Counted from the stretch's first letter, positions 712 to 16,153 are shown. The stretch: DNA of 64,000 bases from a virus (IMGVR_UViG_3300010381_000012); one strand, 5' to 3'. Translations and numbers: made by a program. The notes: a model not told the origin generated them from the sequence alone.

Positions 712-768
712 GGGGCAAAAATGGGGCAAAATTCAGCCTGACGAGCTCCCAGAGGTATATTTTGCCCC
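712..768. promoter_or_regulatory. Probable integrase arm-binding repeats
   Basis: GGGGCAAAA at 712-720 and 723-731, plus inverted copy TTTTGCCCC at 760-768, next to att. Confidence 0.55.
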
Positions 769-1970
769 AACTCACAGACGTTAAGATAAAATCAATCAAG
801 CCTTCCGGGAAGATAGAGCGCTTCCACGACAAGGGTGGCCTATACCTGGAGTTGAGCGTTGCCGGGGGCAAACACTGGCGCTGGAAATACAAGTTCGAAG
901 GCAAGGAAAAGCGTCTGAGTTTTGGGGCTTGGCCACGAGTGTCTCTCAAAGACGCCCGGGATAAACGGGACGCCTGCCGCCGGACGCTAGAGGAAGGCGC
1001 GGACCCAGGACAGGGAATAAAGCAGGGCCGGACCAAAGCCCATGATCCCGAGGCGGCTACGTTCAAGGCTGTGGCGGAAGAGTTCGTCGCGAATCAGAAA
1101 AACGTGTGGGCTGAAAGTCACGCCGAAACAGTTGAGGGAAGACTCCGGAGAGACGTTTACCCGCGCATCGGCGACCGTCCAATCACTGAGATTGAGCCAA
1201 CAGAGATATTAAGCATCCTCCGAAAAATTGAAGAGCGTCGGGCATTTGAGACAGCAAGCCGTGTTCTCGGTTTCTGCTCGCAGATATTTAGATATGGTGT
1301 TGCGATCGGCGCGGTGAAGTCCGATCCATGCAGAGATTTGAAAGGCGCGCTTGTCCCCTACCAGAAGGGGCAACATGCGGCACTGACGGACCCGGATGAA
1401 GTCGGTATGCTCATGGTTGCGATTGATGAATACAAAGGGACTGGCATTGTCCGGGCCGCGCTTTCTTTTTCTGCACTCACTTTTTGCCGGCCAGGCGAAA
1501 TAAGACGCGCCGAATGGATTGAAATTGACCTTGATAAAGAGATGTGGACCATACCGCCAGAGAAAATAAAAACAAGGATAGAGCACAAGGTTCCATTATC
1601 ACGTCAAGCGATATTCATACTCAAAGATATCCATCAATACACAGGGAAGGGCACGTATGTTTTCCCAAGCGTCAGGAGCGGAAGGCCTATTTCTGAAAAC
1701 ACTGTCAATATGGCCATCCGCAATATGGGGTACGCAAAAGACCGAATGACAGCCCATGGGTTTCGAGCAATGGCCTCTACGCTGTTAAACGAAACAGGCC
1801 ATAAGCATGATGTGATCGAAGCGCAGCTTGCGCACAAAGGTGCTGACAAAATACGCGCCGTATATAATCGAGCGCAGTATATGGATGATCGTAGAAAGTT
1901 GATGCAAGCATGGGCAGATTACCTTGACGCGCTAAAGGCTTCTGCGCTTAACGGCTTGTCTGGCAACTGA
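762..1970 (+). CDS. int: P4-like tyrosine integrase with arm-binding domain
   Basis: LTDVKIK..DKGGLYL..W..KY..GKEKRLSFG N-terminus; catalytic R (CRPGE), HGFR, H (LAHK) and Y (VYNRA); TTG start. Confidence 0.95.
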   Translation: MPQLTDVKIKSIKPSGKIERFHDKGGLYLELSVAGGKHWRWKYKFEGKEKRLSFGAWPRVSLKDARDKRDACRRTLEEGADPGQGIKQGRTKAHDPEAATFKAVAEEFVANQKNVWAESHAETVEGRLRRDVYPRIGDRPITEIEPTEILSILRKIEERRAFETASRVLGFCSQIFRYGVAIGAVKSDPCRDLKGALVPYQKGQHAALTDPDEVGMLMVAIDEYKGTGIVRAALSFSALTFCRPGEIRRAEWIEIDLDKEMWTIPPEKIKTRIEHKVPLSRQAIFILKDIHQYTGKGTYVFPSVRSGRPISENTVNMAIRNMGYAKDRMTAHGFRAMASTLLNETGHKHDVIEAQLAHKGADKIRAVYNRAQYMDDRRKLMQAWADYLDALKASALNGLSGN

Positions 1971-5860: not shown

Positions 5861-6580
5861 TCACCTGATGATGTTTATTCCCGGCAGGCGCACGGAAAGC
5901 CACTCCTGGATGGCGTCCATGGCCTTGTTGCGCCACGCCTCGCCGTCAGCCACGAACAGTCCGGGCGAACCTTCCTTGGACAGGCGGAAGAGGAACTGCC
6001 GCGCCGGCTGCTCGATTTCCTGGAAGGTGCAGAACGGATGCAGGGTCACGCGGGGTTTGGTTTTGCGCTCGGACACGAGGCGCGCCCCGGCTTCGACGGT
6101 GACGGTCTGGCTGGTGCCGTCGTCCTTAATGCCGCCGCCGGCTTCGATCTTGATGGCGGCCACGTCGGCCAGGAGCGCGTCACGGTCGCCGGCCTCGGTG
6201 AACATGGCATTCAGGCCGATGATGAAGTTCTCGCTGGGCATGAACTGTCCGAACTCAAAGAGGGGCAGGATCGGCTCGGCCGTGGCGATGATTTCGCGCT
6301 GCTTGAACGGGCCGAACACCGGGCCGAGAAGCATGACGTGCGTCGGCGTGTCGACGTGGACCAGGGACTTGGTCATGTCATGCTCGTCCACATTGGCCTT
6401 GATGTAGCCCACAAGCCCGGTCAGGGTATGCAGGCCCAGGCTCGGGACCTCGGGATCCTTGATCGGCGTCGGCGTGCCGAAGACGTACTTCCTGCCGTCG
6501 ACTTCCTTGACGCACCGGTCGTTGATCTGGTCCTTGAGGGTGGCGACGAACTGCAGGGCTTCGGCGGAACAGTTATCCAC
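5861..6580 (-). CDS. Conserved phage protein (partner of 6573-6935)
   Basis: 239 aa, LHTLTGLVGYIK and VTLHPFCTFQEIEQP; strong coding bias. Confidence 0.8.
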   Translation of the reverse strand: MDNCSAEALQFVATLKDQINDRCVKEVDGRKYVFGTPTPIKDPEVPSLGLHTLTGLVGYIKANVDEHDMTKSLVHVDTPTHVMLLGPVFGPFKQREIIATAEPILPLFEFGQFMPSENFIIGLNAMFTEAGDRDALLADVAAIKIEAGGGIKDDGTSQTVTVEAGARLVSERKTKPRVTLHPFCTFQEIEQPARQFLFRLSKEGSPGLFVADGEAWRNKAMDAIQEWLSVRLPGINIIR

Positions 6581-6935
6581 GGGCGGCCTCCTTCATGGGG
6601 GTGACTTTGGGGTTGTCGATGGGAAGTTCGCACTGGTCGGGGCGGGTCCCGATCTCAGGGATGAACAAGGCCAACTCACCGTTGTGGTCGGACTCGACCA
6701 TGGACGTGATGGAGACGGGCTTGACCGGGGCCAGGGCCGTCTTGACGGCGTAGGTCATCTCCGGGAAATTCCGCTGCTCGTTCGGCTTGAACGCGACCTC
6801 AATGACCAGCTTGCGGGCTTTCTTGAAGTCCGTGTTCGGGTCCTGGATGTTGGCCGTGACCTCGGACAGGCCCTTGTTGACGATTTCGGCCAGACCATCC
6901 CGGCCAAGGCTTTCAAAATCCAGTTTGATGCTCAT
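6573..6935 (-). CDS. Conserved phage protein (often annotated replication-terminator-like)
   Basis: VTANIQDPNTDFKKARKLVIEVAFKP..VKTALAP pattern. Confidence 0.75.
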   Translation of the reverse strand: MSIKLDFESLGRDGLAEIVNKGLSEVTANIQDPNTDFKKARKLVIEVAFKPNEQRNFPEMTYAVKTALAPVKPVSITSMVESDHNGELALFIPEIGTRPDQCELPIDNPKVTPMKEAARG

Positions 6936-7228: not shown

Positions 7229-7419
7229 TAGTATCGCCTCCCATTCGGCTTCTGGAATTGCTGCTTGAACCCGCAGGGATGGCCGCAGTGGTAGCCGCCA
7301 CAAAACGGGCAGCGGTATGGCTGTGTCCCGTTCCGGGCCATGGCCTCGGCCTGCTCCATCGTTTCGTGGCGGATTTTTCCGGCGCAGGCCTTGCGGCGAA
7401 GGTGGCGTTTGGAGGCCAT
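7228..7419 (-). CDS. Small zinc-finger protein
   Basis: RRKAC.GKIRH...YRCPFCGGYHCGH. Confidence 0.7.
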   Translation of the reverse strand: MASKRHLRRKACAGKIRHETMEQAEAMARNGTQPYRCPFCGGYHCGHPCGFKQQFQKPNGRRY

Positions 7420-7646
7420 CACGCAACCACCTTCGCCGGAAGGTTGTAGCCGGCGCGGCAGGCATTCACATGCTCCCGCGCACGCTCGACGCACTCGCGG
7501 AAGGTGGGCTCGAAGCCCTGGGTTTCGATCAAGGCGTCAGCGATGGTGGCCAGTCCGTTGATGACTTCCTTGGAATAGCCTTCGGCTATCAAAACCTTCG
7601 CCAGGGCGAGGGCCTGCTCAAAGCGCTCATATTCGTGGAGGTCCAT
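7419..7646 (-). CDS. Hypothetical protein
   Basis: MDLHEYERFEQAL; coupled ORF. Confidence 0.6.
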   Translation of the reverse strand: MDLHEYERFEQALALAKVLIAEGYSKEVINGLATIADALIETQGFEPTFRECVERAREHVNACRAGYNLPAKVVA

Positions 7647-9475
7647 CACTCCCCACCTCCCTCGCCCATCGCCTCGCCCACAAACCGGCTTACGGGGCTT
7701 TCGTAGACGCGCACCCGGCCGTCCTGGCCGATCTTCTCGCTTCGCTCCGGCCGAACGGCCAAGGTCAGGGCGTCCCGGGCCCGGGTTATGGCCACGTAGG
7801 CAAGCCGGCGCTCCTCTTCGATGTCGCCGGCGTCCACGGCGCGCTTGCTCGGCAAGATGCCCTCGTTGCAGCCTGCAAGGATCACGTAGGGCCATTCCAG
7901 GCCCTTGGCGCCGTGGATGGTGGCCAAGGTGACAACGCCGGGTCCGTCAGGATCGGCGGCGGGTATCTCGTCCTGGACGTCGTAGGTGGAGAGCCATTCG
8001 AGGTAGGCGGAGACGGTGCGCTCCTGTGGTGGGCGTCCGGTGCAGTAGTCTTCAAGGAAGGTCAGCACCTCGACGGCTGGAAGGGGTTCCTGGAGGTCGT
8101 CGCAAGGCTCCATGGCCGTGTCGAGGTCAGTTCCTCCAGAATGGATCGCAAAAAACCGCACGGCTTCCCCGCTGGCGTTTTCAACCCATGCTTGGAAGTG
8201 GCTCTTGTCCTCTCGAACCGCCCTCCCCCGGATCGCGGCATACTCGTCATCCGAGATGCCCAAGGCTTCCCGGATCAACAGGAACGCGAAGTTGTCGAAC
8301 GGGTTCACCAACAACTTGAGGAACGCATGGAACCGCCGGAACTCCTCGCTGTTGGTCAGCGCGGCCTGCCGCCCAACGTAGAGGTACGGCACGCCCTGGG
8401 CGTCCAGTTCTTCGGCCACGCGCTGAAGCAGGACGTGCTTACGGGCAAGGATGGCGGTTTCGCGGGGAAGAAACCGTTCCGGTGTTGCGGCTTGGACCAC
8501 GCTGGCAATGACCGCGCTGTCCATCTCCCGGCGGGTATCAACAAGCGCCCCGTCTTCCCGATAAGCGGTCATGGTCTTCGACAACCGGATCACGTTGTGG
8601 TCGATCAGGCGATTTGCCATTTCGACCACCTGCCAGCCCGACCGATAGTTTCTCTCCAGTCGCATGACTTTGAAGCTGTCGGCGTTCTCGATCAGGTATT
8701 CTGGGCAAGCGCCCCGCCAGGAGTACAAGGACTGGTCGATATCCCCGACCGCGAACAGCGTTGCCGACAACCCGGCGGCCATGGACTCCAGGAGGCCCCA
8801 TTGCAGCCGGTCAAGGTCCTGGACTTCGTCCACCAGCGCGTGCCGCCAGCCGAGGTATTGCATGACCTTCGGCAGGAGCAGCATGAAGCCGGTGAGGAGC
8901 CCACCATAGGTCAGGGCGTTGTTTTCGCGGCATCGGGCCATGAAGGCGCGGAAGAGGTCGAACACCCCCTTGTCGAGTGCGGAAGGCTCGATGCCGGTCG
9001 CGTAGTAGGCTCCGAAAGCCGCGTCGATTTCCTTCTTCGGAACCTTCCAGGCCTTGCCCTTGAGCGCCCCCATCTCCGTGGCCACCTGCCGCAAAAGAAA
9101 CGACTCCTCCCATTCGCTGTAGACCGTGATATTGTCCGGCCGCAGGCCGAGCAGCTCCCCGAACCGGCGAAGCTGCACCAGGGCCAGGGCGTGCATGGTG
9201 CCCATGGTCACGCCGTAGGCCTTGTTGCCGATCCGCTTGAGCAGGCGTTCACGCATTTCAGCCGCGGCCTTTCGGGTGAACGTGACGGCCACGATCTCGG
9301 ACGGCGAGGCCTGGCACTCCTCGATCAAGTAGGCGATCCGCTCGGTGAGCACGCGCGTCTTGCCGCTGCCGGCCCCGGCCAGAACCAGGGCCCGGGGCGC
9401 GTCGGTGGTCACGGCGGCAAGCTGGTCCGGGTCGAGCACGGCGCGCGCGGCGCAGCCAGGATTAGGCGTTTCCAT
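7646..9475 (-). CDS. UvrD/PcrA-family SF1 helicase
   Basis: LDPDQ, AGAGSGKT, VDEVQD, VGDIDQSLYSWRGA, NYRS, TIHGAKGLEW, EERRLAYVAITRA. Confidence 0.97.
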   Translation of the reverse strand: METPNPGCAARAVLDPDQLAAVTTDAPRALVLAGAGSGKTRVLTERIAYLIEECQASPSEIVAVTFTRKAAAEMRERLLKRIGNKAYGVTMGTMHALALVQLRRFGELLGLRPDNITVYSEWEESFLLRQVATEMGALKGKAWKVPKKEIDAAFGAYYATGIEPSALDKGVFDLFRAFMARCRENNALTYGGLLTGFMLLLPKVMQYLGWRHALVDEVQDLDRLQWGLLESMAAGLSATLFAVGDIDQSLYSWRGACPEYLIENADSFKVMRLERNYRSGWQVVEMANRLIDHNVIRLSKTMTAYREDGALVDTRREMDSAVIASVVQAATPERFLPRETAILARKHVLLQRVAEELDAQGVPYLYVGRQAALTNSEEFRRFHAFLKLLVNPFDNFAFLLIREALGISDDEYAAIRGRAVREDKSHFQAWVENASGEAVRFFAIHSGGTDLDTAMEPCDDLQEPLPAVEVLTFLEDYCTGRPPQERTVSAYLEWLSTYDVQDEIPAADPDGPGVVTLATIHGAKGLEWPYVILAGCNEGILPSKRAVDAGDIEEERRLAYVAITRARDALTLAVRPERSEKIGQDGRVRVYESPVSRFVGEAMGEGGGE

Positions 9476-10058
9476 GGGTGTCCTCCACGCGGACCACGTC
9501 CCAGCCCTCCGGGACTCCCGCCGGTTCGTGACAACTGTTGCAAATGACCTGCGTCCCCGGATTGGTGGCGGCCATGTGTTCCAGGGCCAGGGTAAGGTGA
9601 GCCTCGTCGAGCTCGGCCGCCTCGAGGATCAGCACTCGGTGCTTGGCGTCACCCAGGAGCGCATGGGCCAGGGCCGCGTCGAACAGCACACGTTGCCCGC
9701 CGGAAAGGCCGGCGTGGGGAATCTCCTCCCCATCCGGCCGCCTCCAGGCCAGGGCCACGGCGCCGTCGTCCTCGATGCGCATGTCCGCCTTCCCCTCGGG
9801 GAGAATCTGCCCCATGGCGGTGGCCAGCTTGGCACAGGTGGCGGCCACGGCCTTGGCCTTCTGGCTTTTGAGGTCCTCCAGGATGGCCTTGGCTTCCCCG
9901 GCGGCTTTGCGGGCTTCGGCGGCCTTGGTCCGCTCGGCCTCGGCCGCCTCGTCCAGCCCCTTGGCTTGGTTGTAGAGGGCGATCTCACCCCGCAGAGACT
10001 TCAAGCGGGCCTCGAGGCCCGCTATTTGTTGTTCAAGAATCGCAGTGTCGGCGCTCAT
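9462..10058 (-). CDS. Rad50/SMC-like ABC ATPase, C-terminal half
   Basis: N-terminal coiled coil; signature LSGGQ; Walker B/D-loop-like VLILEAAELDE; H-loop NSCH. Confidence 0.8.
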   Translation of the reverse strand: MSADTAILEQQIAGLEARLKSLRGEIALYNQAKGLDEAAEAERTKAAEARKAAGEAKAILEDLKSQKAKAVAATCAKLATAMGQILPEGKADMRIEDDGAVALAWRRPDGEEIPHAGLSGGQRVLFDAALAHALLGDAKHRVLILEAAELDEAHLTLALEHMAATNPGTQVICNSCHEPAGVPEGWDVVRVEDTHGNA

Positions 10059-11008
10059 GCGGCCTCCCGTGGCAGGCCCTTGCGGGCCTTGGCCAACTCC
10101 TGTTTGATGACCATGCGCGCGGCGCACACGTCGCAGCCGGTTCGGCCCATGGTGGAAAGGATGCGCTCGAGGATAGCGGCCATGTCGGGAGCGGCCACCT
10201 GCGGCGTGTCCATGTGCGGGGGGGCGGACGGGAACAGTTCGGGGCCTGCCGAGCCGACGACATACCCGGAGGCGTCCAGCGGGCCACCTTGGGCCGGCTG
10301 CTCGGCCTGCCGTGCTTCGGCCTTGGTCTGCTCCTCGGCCCGGGCCGCCGCGATCCGCTCCGCTTCCAGGTCGGCACGAGCCTGGGCCAAGTCGGCCTCG
10401 GCCTGCTCGATCTCGTGTTGCTTGTCGGCCATGGTTCCGGCCGGAAGCTGGAGATTGGAGCGACGGGAAAGTACGGTCGCTACGGCGGTCATGGCCTCGC
10501 GCTCCTGCCGCTCCAGGTCGTTGACGCGTTTCGTCTGCGCCTCGATCTTGGCCGCGATGTCGCGCACGTTGCCCTCGGGCGGGAACAGGCGGAAAAGCTC
10601 GTCGACCTTCTTGGCGTCCGAAAATCCCAGGAAAACGGAGAGGTCCACCAGGGCCACATCGGCCAGGGCCCGGGCGTATTCGTCCGGCTTTACGCGGATG
10701 CCACCGACATGAAGGTCCTGGGACACGGTTCCTTTGGTCGAACGCTGCCAGCGGCGTTCAAGCTTGGTGCCGTTTTCCAGCACCACCCCGGCGCGAAGAT
10801 CCTTGCCGTCCTGGCTCTTGAATGCGTCCAAAATGGCCGCGTTTTGCTTTCCTCCCGCTCCCGGCACGTAGCCGAGCACGGCGAGTTGTAGGGCTTGGCT
10901 CCGGCTGGACTTACCGGAGCCGTTTGGCCCCACCACCAGGGTCAGCCCCTTCAAGGGGGCCTTGAACGTGGCCCCCTTGAAGCTGTGGGCGATGACGGCG
11001 GGGATCAC
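10055..11008 (-). CDS. Rad50/SMC-like ABC ATPase, N-terminal half
   Basis: SFKG; Walker A GPNGSGKS; coiled coil; C-terminal CDVC. Confidence 0.85.
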   Translation of the reverse strand: MIPAVIAHSFKGATFKAPLKGLTLVVGPNGSGKSSRSQALQLAVLGYVPGAGGKQNAAILDAFKSQDGKDLRAGVVLENGTKLERRWQRSTKGTVSQDLHVGGIRVKPDEYARALADVALVDLSVFLGFSDAKKVDELFRLFPPEGNVRDIAAKIEAQTKRVNDLERQEREAMTAVATVLSRRSNLQLPAGTMADKQHEIEQAEADLAQARADLEAERIAAARAEEQTKAEARQAEQPAQGGPLDASGYVVGSAGPELFPSAPPHMDTPQVAAPDMAAILERILSTMGRTGCDVCAARMVIKQELAKARKGLPREAA

Positions 11009-12306
11009 GACGCTTCCCCATCAACCATGCGGGAGATGATGTTGTAGAGCTCCCGGGCCTGGGCAGGCGTCACGGCCGCGTCGGGCTTGATGCTCATGCG
11101 CAGGCGGGCCTTACGGTCTTCGTCTGGGCAGGCCTCGCGGGTGGCCTCGTAGTTGGCGAGGTCCTTTTTATCGGCGTCGGACAGCTCAAAGATGGCTTTG
11201 GCCGTCTCGGGCTTTTCGGCCTGGGGCGCAGCCGGCGGAACGTCATCGGCGGCATGGTCATAGGTGCCGTTGCCGTTCGGGGCCATGTCGATGGGCGCGG
11301 AGGCTTCGGCCGGGGGAAGTTCGGGGGCGCTGTCTTCGTCTTCGGCCCCAATCAGGTCGGGCTCGGCGTCCATGTGGTCGGTGCCTTTGGCATATTCAAT
11401 GGTCATGGGCTTCTCACCCTCGCTCAAGGCAATATGCCCTTGTCCCGACCCGAGAGCCTCCACCTGCCCCAGCATCGAATCGTAGGCGGTGCCGTCCCAC
11501 TTCATGAGGCCCCCGTTCATCGGCCGCCAACAGAGGATGGCCAAGTCCCAGCGGTTCCCAGGGGCCTTTTGGAGCCCAGAAAGGTGCTTGCAGGCATTTC
11601 TGCAGGCGAACGTTTGCGCGAAATCCATGGCCTTTTTTTCGCGGTTGATAATCGTTTTATACCATTCCAAGGCCTCCTTATGGGAGGAGTCCACCCATAG
11701 AGCCATGACCTCATCAAAAGCGTAGCGGCCCCAGTCACCCGGCTCTTTCGGTTTTCCCGCATCGATCGGGCGCAGTTTGAACGCCTGCGGCATCTTGGCG
11801 GCCTTGGCGAGAAGGTCGATCATCCGGTAGCCGGGAACGTCGTAAAACGTCGTCCAGTCCCGAACCATGGGGATACCCTTGTCGGAGAAACGAAACGCGA
11901 TGGCGCGGGCGTAGATGCCCTTGATCCTGCCGTTGGAGTCGTCACGAACCACATGCGGGTTCGTTTGCGGAACACCGTCGACGATGACCGTCTTGGGGAA
12001 AATAACGTTCGCGCCGGCGGCTTCGGACCATTTTTCATAGCCTTGGGCGGAAATGACGTGGGGTCCTCCCGGGACAGGCTGCACAAGGCCGCCATTCTCC
12101 ACGGAAAGCGTCAAGCGTTGTTTGAAGGCCTTGATCTGACCCGAGGAATCCCGAAGCGTGAAAGCTTCGTTTGCGCCAAGGGCGACCACGTCCTTGCTGT
12201 GCATGGCCGCGAGGTACGCGGTCAGGGTCTTCCCTTCCTTGGGCATGCTGGCTACCACGGCCCCAAGGGCGGCCTGGGCCTCGGTTTGCAAATTGGCATA
12301 GGTCAT
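11005..12306 (-). CDS. Large phage protein, possibly a ssDNA-annealing recombinase
   Basis: 433 aa, globular N-part with acidic low-complexity tail; position in recombination cluster. Function is an inference. Confidence 0.6.
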   Translation of the reverse strand: MTYANLQTEAQAALGAVVASMPKEGKTLTAYLAAMHSKDVVALGANEAFTLRDSSGQIKAFKQRLTLSVENGGLVQPVPGGPHVISAQGYEKWSEAAGANVIFPKTVIVDGVPQTNPHVVRDDSNGRIKGIYARAIAFRFSDKGIPMVRDWTTFYDVPGYRMIDLLAKAAKMPQAFKLRPIDAGKPKEPGDWGRYAFDEVMALWVDSSHKEALEWYKTIINREKKAMDFAQTFACRNACKHLSGLQKAPGNRWDLAILCWRPMNGGLMKWDGTAYDSMLGQVEALGSGQGHIALSEGEKPMTIEYAKGTDHMDAEPDLIGAEDEDSAPELPPAEASAPIDMAPNGNGTYDHAADDVPPAAPQAEKPETAKAIFELSDADKKDLANYEATREACPDEDRKARLRMSIKPDAAVTPAQARELYNIISRMVDGEAS

Positions 12307-14998: not shown

Positions 14999-15379
14999 AT
15001 GCAGATGTCTGAATTCTTGTCTTTATGCGAAATGGCAAACAAGCTCAGCATGGTTGGCGTTGCGATTATCGAAGTGAACGAAGAAAAGTTAGGGCTTACT
15101 ATATCAGATTGCAGCGACAACTATTGTGCCATGATTGGCATAGGAAGAAATGAGCTTATCGGGAGGGACCCACGCGCCTACAAAGAATACGAAGACGGCG
15201 CGCGGATAGATGACTTTTTGACGCACTTACAGATGGGGCAAGTGAACGAGGTTGAATACACGGAAGTGTATTCTTGCGGCCTGAAGGATAAAAAAAAGAC
15301 GGTGGCCATACCATTTCGGTACGGCAACCGCCTTTATTATGTTTCTATGTGTATGTCGCTATTGCTTACTCATATCTGA
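14999..15379 (+). CDS. Stand-alone PAS-like domain protein
   Basis: GVAIIE..ISDCSDNYCAMIGIGRNELIGRDP matches the PAS N-x2-F/Y-x3-G-x4-E-x2-G pattern. Confidence 0.6.
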   Translation: MQMSEFLSLCEMANKLSMVGVAIIEVNEEKLGLTISDCSDNYCAMIGIGRNELIGRDPRAYKEYEDGARIDDFLTHLQMGQVNEVEYTEVYSCGLKDKKKTVAIPFRYGNRLYYVSMCMSLLLTHI

Positions 15380-16153
15380 CCAAGAGTAGACGACCTTCCC
15401 GATAACAACGTTTGACAGCTGGTCCTCAAATTCTTGCGTAACATTTATAGAATAAGGAGGGAAAAACTTATTGTCAGAATGCACAATCAATAGAGACTCC
15501 ATCCCTTGTTGTTGAAGGCTCAATCTTTTGACAGCTATGCCATCATACTTGTCACGAATGAGGAAGATGTTCCCTTTGTTTATTGATGGTATGATGATGT
15601 CGTTCCTGTCTATAACTATAAAATCGCCGGGGTGAAGTGTTGGCTCCATGCTGTTTTGTTTATCAGCGAGGCGAGAACATAGCAGGTTTCTACGTCGTAA
15701 CAGGGCTGGTATGTTTTTCCATAAAATACACCAGCCCTGTATTCCATCCTCAGGTATAAGCCCGGGCCCGGCGGCAACCTCTGCCGATGTTAGTGGGATG
15801 GCCCGATATTCATCCCCCACAGGCGGCGGCGTATTCCCTTCGATATTCAAAAGCTCCGGGCTGGCGAACGTCAAGGACCTGTCGGTGACGTTGACCTCGC
15901 CGGGCCAAACGAGTTTTACACCAATTTTATCAAGTATCTCGCAAACATCCTTATAACCAGTGTTGATACCACGGCCGAGGCGGTTTAGGGTGTTTTGTTT
16001 AACCCCCCATTCCCTGGCCGCTGCGCTCTCGTTCCCATCAAACTGATCGGCAACTAGGCGCTTCACTTTTTCGCGGACATCCTGGGCTAACGACATACCA
16101 CCCCCGCTTTTTCCGTCGGGGGTAGTGGGTTTCTCATTTTTTGTCTTAATCAT
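15359..16153 (-). CDS. cI: CI-type repressor (HTH + S24 peptidase); alternative start 16096
   Basis: HTH ESAAAREWGVKQNTLNRL; AG cleavage site (AAGPG); catalytic SMEP and VKRL. Confidence 0.93.
   Translation of the reverse strand: MIKTKNEKPTTPDGKSGGGMSLAQDVREKVKRLVADQFDGNESAAAREWGVKQNTLNRLGRGINTGYKDVCEILDKIGVKLVWPGEVNVTDRSLTFASPELLNIEGNTPPPVGDEYRAIPLTSAEVAAGPGLIPEDGIQGWCILWKNIPALLRRRNLLCSRLADKQNSMEPTLHPGDFIVIDRNDIIIPSINKGNIFLIRDKYDGIAVKRLSLQQQGMESLLIVHSDNKFFPPYSINVTQEFEDQLSNVVIGKVVYSWSDMSKQ

Follow-up and report, generated by a model that had tools for sequence, protein, structure and literature searches.

A conserved two-gene SMC/Rad50-like ATPase in a prophage of a sulfate-reducing bacterium, encoded together with a UvrD-type helicase

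The viral sequence IMGVR_UViG_3300010381_000012, analysed here as a window of 64,000 nucleotides, is a prophage of a sulfate-reducing bacterium (provirus completeness 100% according to CheckV). Its minus strand carries four open reading frames (ORFs) arranged head to tail and translationally coupled, which encode a 433-aa protein of unassigned function, the N-terminal and the C-terminal half of an ATPase (N-half and C-half), and a UvrD-type helicase. The two middle genes are two halves of one ABC ATPase of the SMC/Rad50 superfamily, and the split is retained, far beyond chance, in every locus found to carry both of them. To our knowledge, SMC and Rad50 proteins have been treated as single folded-back chains, which were split only artificially in order to crystallise their heads. 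The best overall explanation of the locus is, in our opinion, a two-chain SMC/Rad50-like ATPase acting in a nuclease-free recombination or replication-restart module; we assign to it a probability of about 0.55.

Conservation of the split was examined in genomes and in metagenomes. Ten loci from Desulfovibrionaceae and related genomes (Solidesulfovibrio alcoholivorans, Bilophila, Mailhella and metagenome-assembled genomes, MAGs) all keep the halves separate and share the gene order 433-aa protein, N-half, C-half, UvrD. A metagenome scan seeded with the C-half yielded 58 loci, and all 41 of them that carry both halves are split as well, which makes 51 of 51 altogether. The junction itself is variable. 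In genome loci it differs by clade, being either the ATGA overlap, an 8-nt ATGGATAA overlap or, in the prophage of one Deltaproteobacteria MAG (L008), a spacer of 258 nt. The gap between the halves in the 41 metagenome loci is -4 in 12 cases, -8 in 9, -1 to +2 in 6 and -14 to -20 in 4, whereas in 10 loci the halves are separated by 107-430 nt that contain a further small ORF. Many of the loci with both halves have GGAGG ahead of the C-half start. The original prediction that these are two coupled genes and not a frameshifted one is supported by the invariable split, by at least five junction types and by the genes inserted in some loci.

Homologues of the N-half lead to the same picture. The search retrieved 53 proteins of 304-346 aa with 95-100% query coverage and identity down to 35%, none of which is a fusion of both halves. 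The N-half profile, searched against 1.84 billion cluster representatives, gave 594 clusters at E<=1e-10, of which 215 reached E<=1e-30; all of the best 150 of the 594 are N-half-only proteins of 241-405 aa, most of them matching nearly the whole profile. No longer protein that includes the C-half was retrieved in a search for such forms, which is weak evidence. A scan of viral contigs found nothing with a single protein as query and 5 loci with an alignment. The possibility that homologues are always fused, named in the original prediction as grounds for abandoning it, is not what we observe: fused forms are confined to distant relatives.

Several observations concern the junctions and the spacing of the module genes. 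Insert ORFs at L046, L047, L049, L054, L055, L057, L058, L061, L062 and L065 are small, unrelated and located exactly between the halves, and genes seem to be inserted preferentially at the N/C junction. The L054 insert resembles, by eye, an RpoA-CTD-like helix-hairpin-helix protein. A 551-aa protein from a Logan assembly (P0054) was considered as an N+C fusion and rejected; it joins the 433-aa protein to roughly the final 150 residues of the N-half, and represents either a deletion variant without the ATPase head lobe or an assembly artefact. In L008, small ORFs occupy ~2.1 kb between the 433-aa gene and the N-half, and the module is immediately preceded by the gene of a TROVE-domain (Ro60-like) protein (L008:1673-3049). 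Loci of the Bilophila/Mailhella type (L004, L005, L009, L010) contain an extra conserved gene of ~100 aa between C-half and UvrD (~9471-9806) and a conserved gene of ~485 aa without Pfam match after UvrD; both are absent from the window.

The N-half contains Pfam domain AAA_23, the Rad50/SbcC-type N-terminal domain, with a score above cut-off (E 9e-9); SMC_N, AAA_29 and others match below their cut-offs. Walker A residues G27, G30, G32 and K33 are invariant in an alignment of 27 rows, and in an alignment of 53 rows G27, G32 and K33 are invariant and G30 nearly so. An AlphaFold2 model built from the 53-sequence alignment (mean confidence, pLDDT, 85.8) starts with head lobe I bearing Walker A, followed by helices 148-185 and 193-236 around a conserved LPAGT. 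As a profile compared with PDB sequences, the N-half gives P-loop-level matches only. Its model is matched by Foldseek to heads of SMC, RecF, SbcC/Rad50 and RecN, nearly tied at about 7e-7 to 1e-5, and VIA-align relates it to the same heads with Z of 10-13. Top structural matches include separate N chains of Pyrococcus furiosus Rad50 (1ii8_A, 1f2u_C) and Bacillus subtilis SMC (5h66_A), which indicates that such halves can reassemble.

The C-half opens directly with a coil (about residues 5-88), the start of which aligns to the SMC coil in profile comparison, and continues with head lobe II. Its profile finds the SMC3 head as the best match among PDB sequences (E 4.8e-8), along with SMC1 and bacterial SMC, and Rad50 at E 0.35; the C-terminal part of SMC_N is matched weakly. 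Gly34 is invariant in 9 aligned C-halves, and Gly occupies this position in 39 of 42. A Walker B-like segment, VLILE (142-146), is followed by the D-loop AELD (148-151). In hidden Markov model (HMM) alignment to SMC3 and SMC1, E146 stands at the Walker B Asp; both E146 and E149 are present in all 42 C-halves. The Walker B originally assigned to this chain can therefore be recognised as Walker B-like, but it is non-canonical and has Ala at the position of the catalytic Glu. ATP binding and head engagement look intact; fast hydrolysis is doubtful.

The head fold common to SMC, Rad50, RecF and RecN is thus recognised by fold matches of the N-half, by the SMC3 profile match of the C-half and by AAA_23. 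The original label "Rad50/SMC-like" holds at the level of the SMC/Rad50 superfamily, but Rad50 is too specific a name, since the fold and profile matches are tied and several defining Rad50 features are missing. Rad50 and SbcC are single polypeptides, not the products of two genes, and their Walker B (hhhhD followed by the catalytic Glu) has no counterpart here. The ATPase cannot be filed as Rad50 proper.

The N-half ends with a hook-like tip. In the model, a disordered Pro/Ala-rich stretch (240-275) is followed by helix 276-290, the motif GCDVC (291-295) and helix 296-310. The coil was initially described as ending in CDVC; the motif is indeed present, but not at the very end, as 22 residues follow it. 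GCxxCAA occurs in 133 of 151 cluster representatives; its median distance from the C terminus is 23 residues.

The fused relatives are single-chain ATPases of the phrog_32642 type, 716-743 aa long. Two of them, L014 (739 aa) and L015 (716 aa), match phrog_32642 with E 1e-135 and 1e-225, respectively, and phrog_77 ("SbcC-like") with 7e-19. UvrD follows both, and a phrog_32428 protein, i.e. a relative of the 433-aa protein, precedes L015 (E 1.5e-130). The N-half itself belongs to this family by its match to phrog_32642 (E 4.6e-17, profile positions 4-152), and hhalign of its profile against L015 extends over residues 4-248 (probability 99.5%, E 1e-22); the match of the C-half to L015 is weak (residues 598-707, E 9e-4). 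When split and fused forms are aligned jointly, the CxxC of the former coincides with a mid-coil Cys motif of the latter (SCPIC in L016, Cx7C in L014 and L015), and the C-half starts ~20 residues past it. Alignment within coils is soft, and the evidence that the cut lies just after the hook equivalent, in agreement with the proposed split at the hook, is therefore moderate. L014 and L015 have D-N at Walker B, again with no Glu after it. L017 represents the canonical SbcC-like type, having DE and CDRC. The simplest history would be that a single-chain phage SbcC-like ATPase of the phrog_32642 type was cut just after the hook. As regards the helicase of L015 (926 aa, L015:9114-11894), it appears by eye to contain an intein-like insertion in the helicase core, with Cys at its start and HNC at its end, and its tblastn match falls in two pieces.

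The helicase of the window matches UvrD-helicase (E 6e-53), UvrD_C (E 4e-38) and phrog_1967 (E 9e-92), which identifies it as a member of superfamily 1A (SF1A), without added nuclease domain. It scores equally well against PcrA, Rep and UvrD models and well below their equivalog cut-offs; it is thus a family member and not an orthologue of any of the three. UvrD comes after the ATPase in split and fused loci alike, and the original placement of UvrD and the 433-aa protein as flanks of the ATPase is borne out, the linkage being kept to ~30% identity. The gene coordinates given at that time are all correct. GTGA at 11008-11005 joins the 433-aa gene to the N-half, and C-half and UvrD overlap by 14 nt (9462-9475). 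The 433-aa gene starts with ATG at 12306, with Shine-Dalgarno sequence AAGGAGG 7 nt before it; a longer reading of 507 aa was dropped because the extension is not conserved.

The module belongs to the leftward early region, with a CI-like repressor on one side and the integrase on the other; in sister loci an integrase ends the same operon. In lambda, the corresponding place between repressor and integrase is occupied by red, and by this analogy a role in recombination is likely. Fused versions adjoin DnaD-like and DnaC-like replication genes. Synteny and the protein families together point to a role in recombination or replication restart. No YqaJ, PDDEXK_1, SSB or Metallophos gene was found in the provirus. 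Metallophos (the Mre11/SbcD family) has no match in the four related viral records either; the same search gave matches in 14 of 14 control genomes, so that the absence of a visible Mre11, first noticed beside the ATPase, applies to the whole provirus. A partner of this kind encoded by the host is conceivable.

The 433-aa protein has no match in Pfam or NCBIfam, and no real Pfam family was recognised in 10 members of its family that were scanned. Its sole PHROG is the unannotated phrog_32428 (E 1e-18). The family has more than 355 homologues (N-domain identity 55-80%) in Desulfobacterota, Omnitrophota MAGs and viral metagenomes, and all members named in their source are called hypothetical or uncharacterised. 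The AlphaFold2 model comprises a structured N-domain (~1-260), a disordered acidic linker (~260-373) and a confident three-helix C-domain. Known single-strand annealing proteins (SSAPs) consist of a DNA-binding N-domain, a flexible linker and a small partner-binding C-domain, and the domain plan of the 433-aa protein is the same. Foldseek found nothing significant with the model, and comparison of its profile with PDB sequences gave noise only. By VIA-align, uS5/dsRBD-like folds come first (Z 6-7, ~60-85 residues aligned). Five annealases rank below them with mostly longer alignments (81-124 residues): human and yeast Rad52 (Z 5.0-5.2, 81-124 aligned, root mean square deviation 3.1-5.9), Mgm101 (4.9), Sak (4.6) and Redbeta (4.6). 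The nearest Pfam-bearing Atlas clusters according to a language model are RecT and Rad52 (0.81-0.82), which serves as a lead only. The suggestion that the module includes an annealase gains leads from the Rad52/Redbeta fold similarity, which is weak, and from the language model, but it is not established; we place the chance that the 433-aa protein is an annealase a little under one half.

We propose that assembly, metal binding and DNA transactions would proceed as follows. The N chain would contribute Walker A, the outgoing arm helix, a flexible linker and the helix-CxxC-helix tip, and the C chain the returning arm helix, signature motif, Walker B, D-loop and H-loop. Translational coupling would supply equal amounts of both chains. 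Pairing of their arm helices would produce an antiparallel coil of ~80 residues per strand and so a composite head, like that of laboratory-split Rad50 and SMC. Two such pairs would probably be joined at their CxxC tips, by a shared metal ion or in some other way, which would give an (N.C)2 clamp or tether. The ATPase may then bind or bridge DNA ends or gaps, the UvrD-type helicase, instead of an exonuclease, would unwind the ends and expose single strands, and the 433-aa protein would coat and anneal these. A more far-reaching version, in which a two-chain clamp joined at the tips by its tethered CxxC grips two DNA ends or a gap, UvrD and a 433-aa protein of a new annealase family complete a self-contained, nuclease-free and helicase-driven alternative to Red/RecET, and the split is functional, is possible, yet we consider it rather doubtful. 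If the split does have a function, the arm might open at its tip to entrap DNA, or the tethered hook might swap partners.

Several points weigh against our preferred explanation. At position 147, where the catalytic Glu would stand, all 42 C-halves have Ala, Gly or Phe and none has Asp or Glu, and no invariant Q-loop Gln is seen in the 53-sequence alignment, where the LSDxKK segment has invariant Ser130. Since the catalytic Glu is absent and no conserved Q-loop Gln is evident, the ATPase may hydrolyse ATP slowly, or serve as a switch that binds ATP, instead of working as a motor. About 40 disordered residues tether the CxxC, CxxxC replaces it in ~8 of 151 clusters, and ~7 clusters have no Cys yet keep the helical module; a zinc hook of Rad50 type is for these reasons not obligatory. 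The composite head and the pairing of the arms are features that we infer. The evidence for an SSAP in the 433-aa protein is weak, with Z of ~5, no Pfam family and a model whose pLDDT is 58.6 as a whole and roughly 70-85 over most of residues 100-240. Both ATPase halves are covered in order by the PADLOC model of mad3 (E 4.8e-8 and 3e-4), a weak match. Finally, INPHARED contains no match to the N-half, the fused L015 ATPase or the 433-aa protein, and DNA-level matches there are short UvrD stretches only; as no annotated phage in this collection carries the module, no genetics exist for it. A scan of viral contigs found nothing with a single protein as query and 5 loci with an alignment.

The mad3 match fits a different view, namely that the genes are a prophage-borne anti-phage defence or anti-defence system in which an ABC ATPase sensor cooperates with a UvrD-like helicase, as in Gabija (GajA/GajB) or MADS. 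The helicase matches GajB models with E 1.5e-76, and the window holds other accessory or anti-defence candidates. However, the GajB match is generic to any UvrD, the helicase being equally near to PcrA, Rep and UvrD. Toprim, HNH or other effector domains are lacking, and the similarity to GajA is limited to the P-loop region (residues 9-41, E 0.007), with no Toprim or extra domain in the 317 and 198 aa of the two chains. Moreover, the module is fixed in the early operon, its fused versions stand beside DnaD-like and DnaC-like genes, and it is always joined to the 433-aa protein with SSAP-like architecture. We therefore hold a defence function for quite unlikely. Less remote, although still unlikely in our view, is a function in replication and not recombination, that is, remodelling of forks or origins, or Gam-like protection of linear ends from host RecBCD/AddAB, with the ATPase as a DNA-end cap and UvrD as an accessory replicative helicase. 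Replication genes follow the fused versions, phrog_997 ("replication terminator") lies just downstream of the module, and both the missing exonuclease partner and the missing catalytic residues would suit binding or capping. On the other hand, no obvious initiator or primase stands beside the module in these loci, and the weak Rad52/Redbeta leads of the 433-aa protein favour annealing. Because recombination and replication are coupled in phages, this alternative overlaps with the explanation that we prefer.

It could also be argued that the split is an artefact, either a frameshifted SbcC-like pseudogene or a programmed frameshift yielding a fused protein, since the ATGA overlap sets the two frames one base apart. 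Variation of the junctions between loci excludes frameshift, pseudogene and programmed recoding: none of the 51 loci is unsplit, overlaps and frame offsets differ, inserts occur in 10 of 41 metagenome loci and L008 has its 258-nt spacer. A Shine-Dalgarno sequence is kept before many C-half starts, the best 150 clusters are N-half-only, no slippery heptamer is apparent by eye at the junction, and the sequences of both halves are strongly conserved. An artefact is thus extremely improbable.

Known systems resemble the two-chain ATPase module in different respects. With Rad50/SbcC (E. coli SbcCD, P. furiosus Mre11-Rad50, phage T4 gp46/gp47) it shares an ABC head that has Walker A in its N-terminal part and the signature, Walker B, D-loop and H-loop in its C-terminal part, a predicted antiparallel coil dividing this head, and a CxxC that would lie between the coil strands; the fold matches reach Z ~10-11, and Rad50/SbcC have a role in phage recombination. 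Here, in contrast, there are two chains, the arm is short (~80 residues per strand), the CxxC is tethered and not universal, the catalytic Glu is absent, no Mre11/SbcD occurs in the provirus or related viral records, and the partner genes encode a UvrD helicase and the 433-aa protein. The phrog_32642 ATPases have gene order and families (phrog_32428, phrog_1967) in common with our module, but they are single-chain, with longer coils and Cx7C instead of CxxC; no function is recorded for phrog_32642, phrog_32428 or phrog_1967. Halves of Rad50 or SMC separated in the laboratory reconstitute the ATPase head as separate chains. Those constructs (PDB 1F2U, 1II8, 5H66) are engineered and without most of the coil and the hook, whereas the split described here is natural and conserved and the whole arm is kept.

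RecF and RecN are tied with the others in head fold (RecF Z 11-12.5, RecN Z 10.4), and neither has a nuclease as partner; they cooperate with helicases and with annealing or mediator proteins. RecF sequences also have a D-loop of ELD type. Unlike the present ATPase, they are single-chain and lack a CxxC tip, and the residue that follows their Walker B Asp is acidic. Pfam/NCBIfam searches detected no RecF or RecN family membership of either half. Lambda Red and RecET are similar in the early-left position and in the annealing protein, for which there is only a candidate here; they differ in that neither an exonuclease nor a Gam homologue was detected in our case and a helicase and an SMC-like ATPase are found instead. 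Gabija likewise pairs an ABC ATPase with a UvrD-family helicase (GajA and GajB), but the present module has no Toprim nuclease, its head is of the SMC/Rad50 and not the OLD type, and its context is an early operon and not a defence island. According to a review-type paper, SMC-like or AAA ATPases adjoin recT in phages of Firmicutes (PMC8093625). Literature search revealed no natural two-gene Rad50, SbcC or SMC. The phage SbcC-like ATPase is a known kind of protein; its conserved two-chain form and the Mre11-less UvrD/phrog_32428 module appear to be undescribed.

Positions of the module genes, their motifs and the delimiting genes are listed in Table 1.

Table 1. Module genes, motifs and delimiting genes in the window (position, strand and basis of assignment)
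Feature	Position	Strand	Basis
433-aa protein, phrog_32428	11005..12306	-	ORF and start; directly upstream of the ATPase; no Pfam/NCBIfam match
ATPase N-half, 317 aa, GTG start	10055..11008	-	AAA_23 match; predicted head fold
ATPase C-half, 198 aa	9462..10058	-	Profile match to C-terminal part of SMC3 head; follows N-half
UvrD/PcrA/Rep-type SF1A helicase, 609 aa	7646..9475	-	UvrD-helicase and UvrD_C matches
Walker A GPNGSGKS, N-half residues 27-34	10907..10930	-	Alignment, motif counts
CDVC, hook-like CxxC, N-half residues 292-295	10124..10135	-	Sequence read; GCxxCAA in relatives
ATGA stop/start overlap of N-half and C-half	10055..10058	-	GGGAGG 5 nt upstream of C-half ATG
ABC signature LSGGQ, C-half residues 118-122	9693..9707	-	GLSGG in 42/42 C-halves
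Non-canonical Walker B and D-loop VLILEAAELD, C-half residues 142-151	9606..9635	-	HMM alignment
H-loop His177 of C-half	9528..9530	-	His in 34/42 C-halves
CI-like repressor (S24 peptidase)	15359..16153	-	Head of leftward early region
Tyrosine integrase	762..1970	+	Left end of provirus

Downstream of the module, the window encodes on the minus strand a phrog_997 protein (120 aa) and a phrog_1029 protein (239 aa), both without Pfam match (5861-6935). Just after UvrD, a small Zn-ribbon protein (CPFCGGYHCGH; phrog_14788) is encoded on the same strand at 7231-7494, with its core at ~7231-7419. Over 65 aa, its identity to the copy of Solidesulfovibrio alcoholivorans DSM 5433 (L001) is 98%, against only 56-82% for the neighbouring proteins.

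In SMC and Rad50 proteins, DNA entry and dimerisation are believed to be gated by the arm tip, and a natural split at this place is relevant to whether the chain needs to be continuous through the hook. The widespread phage module without exonuclease, composed of a candidate annealase, an SMC-like ATPase and UvrD, may represent a recombination route distinct from Red/RecET. If it works, it would be a possible recombineering tool for Desulfovibrio and related anaerobes.

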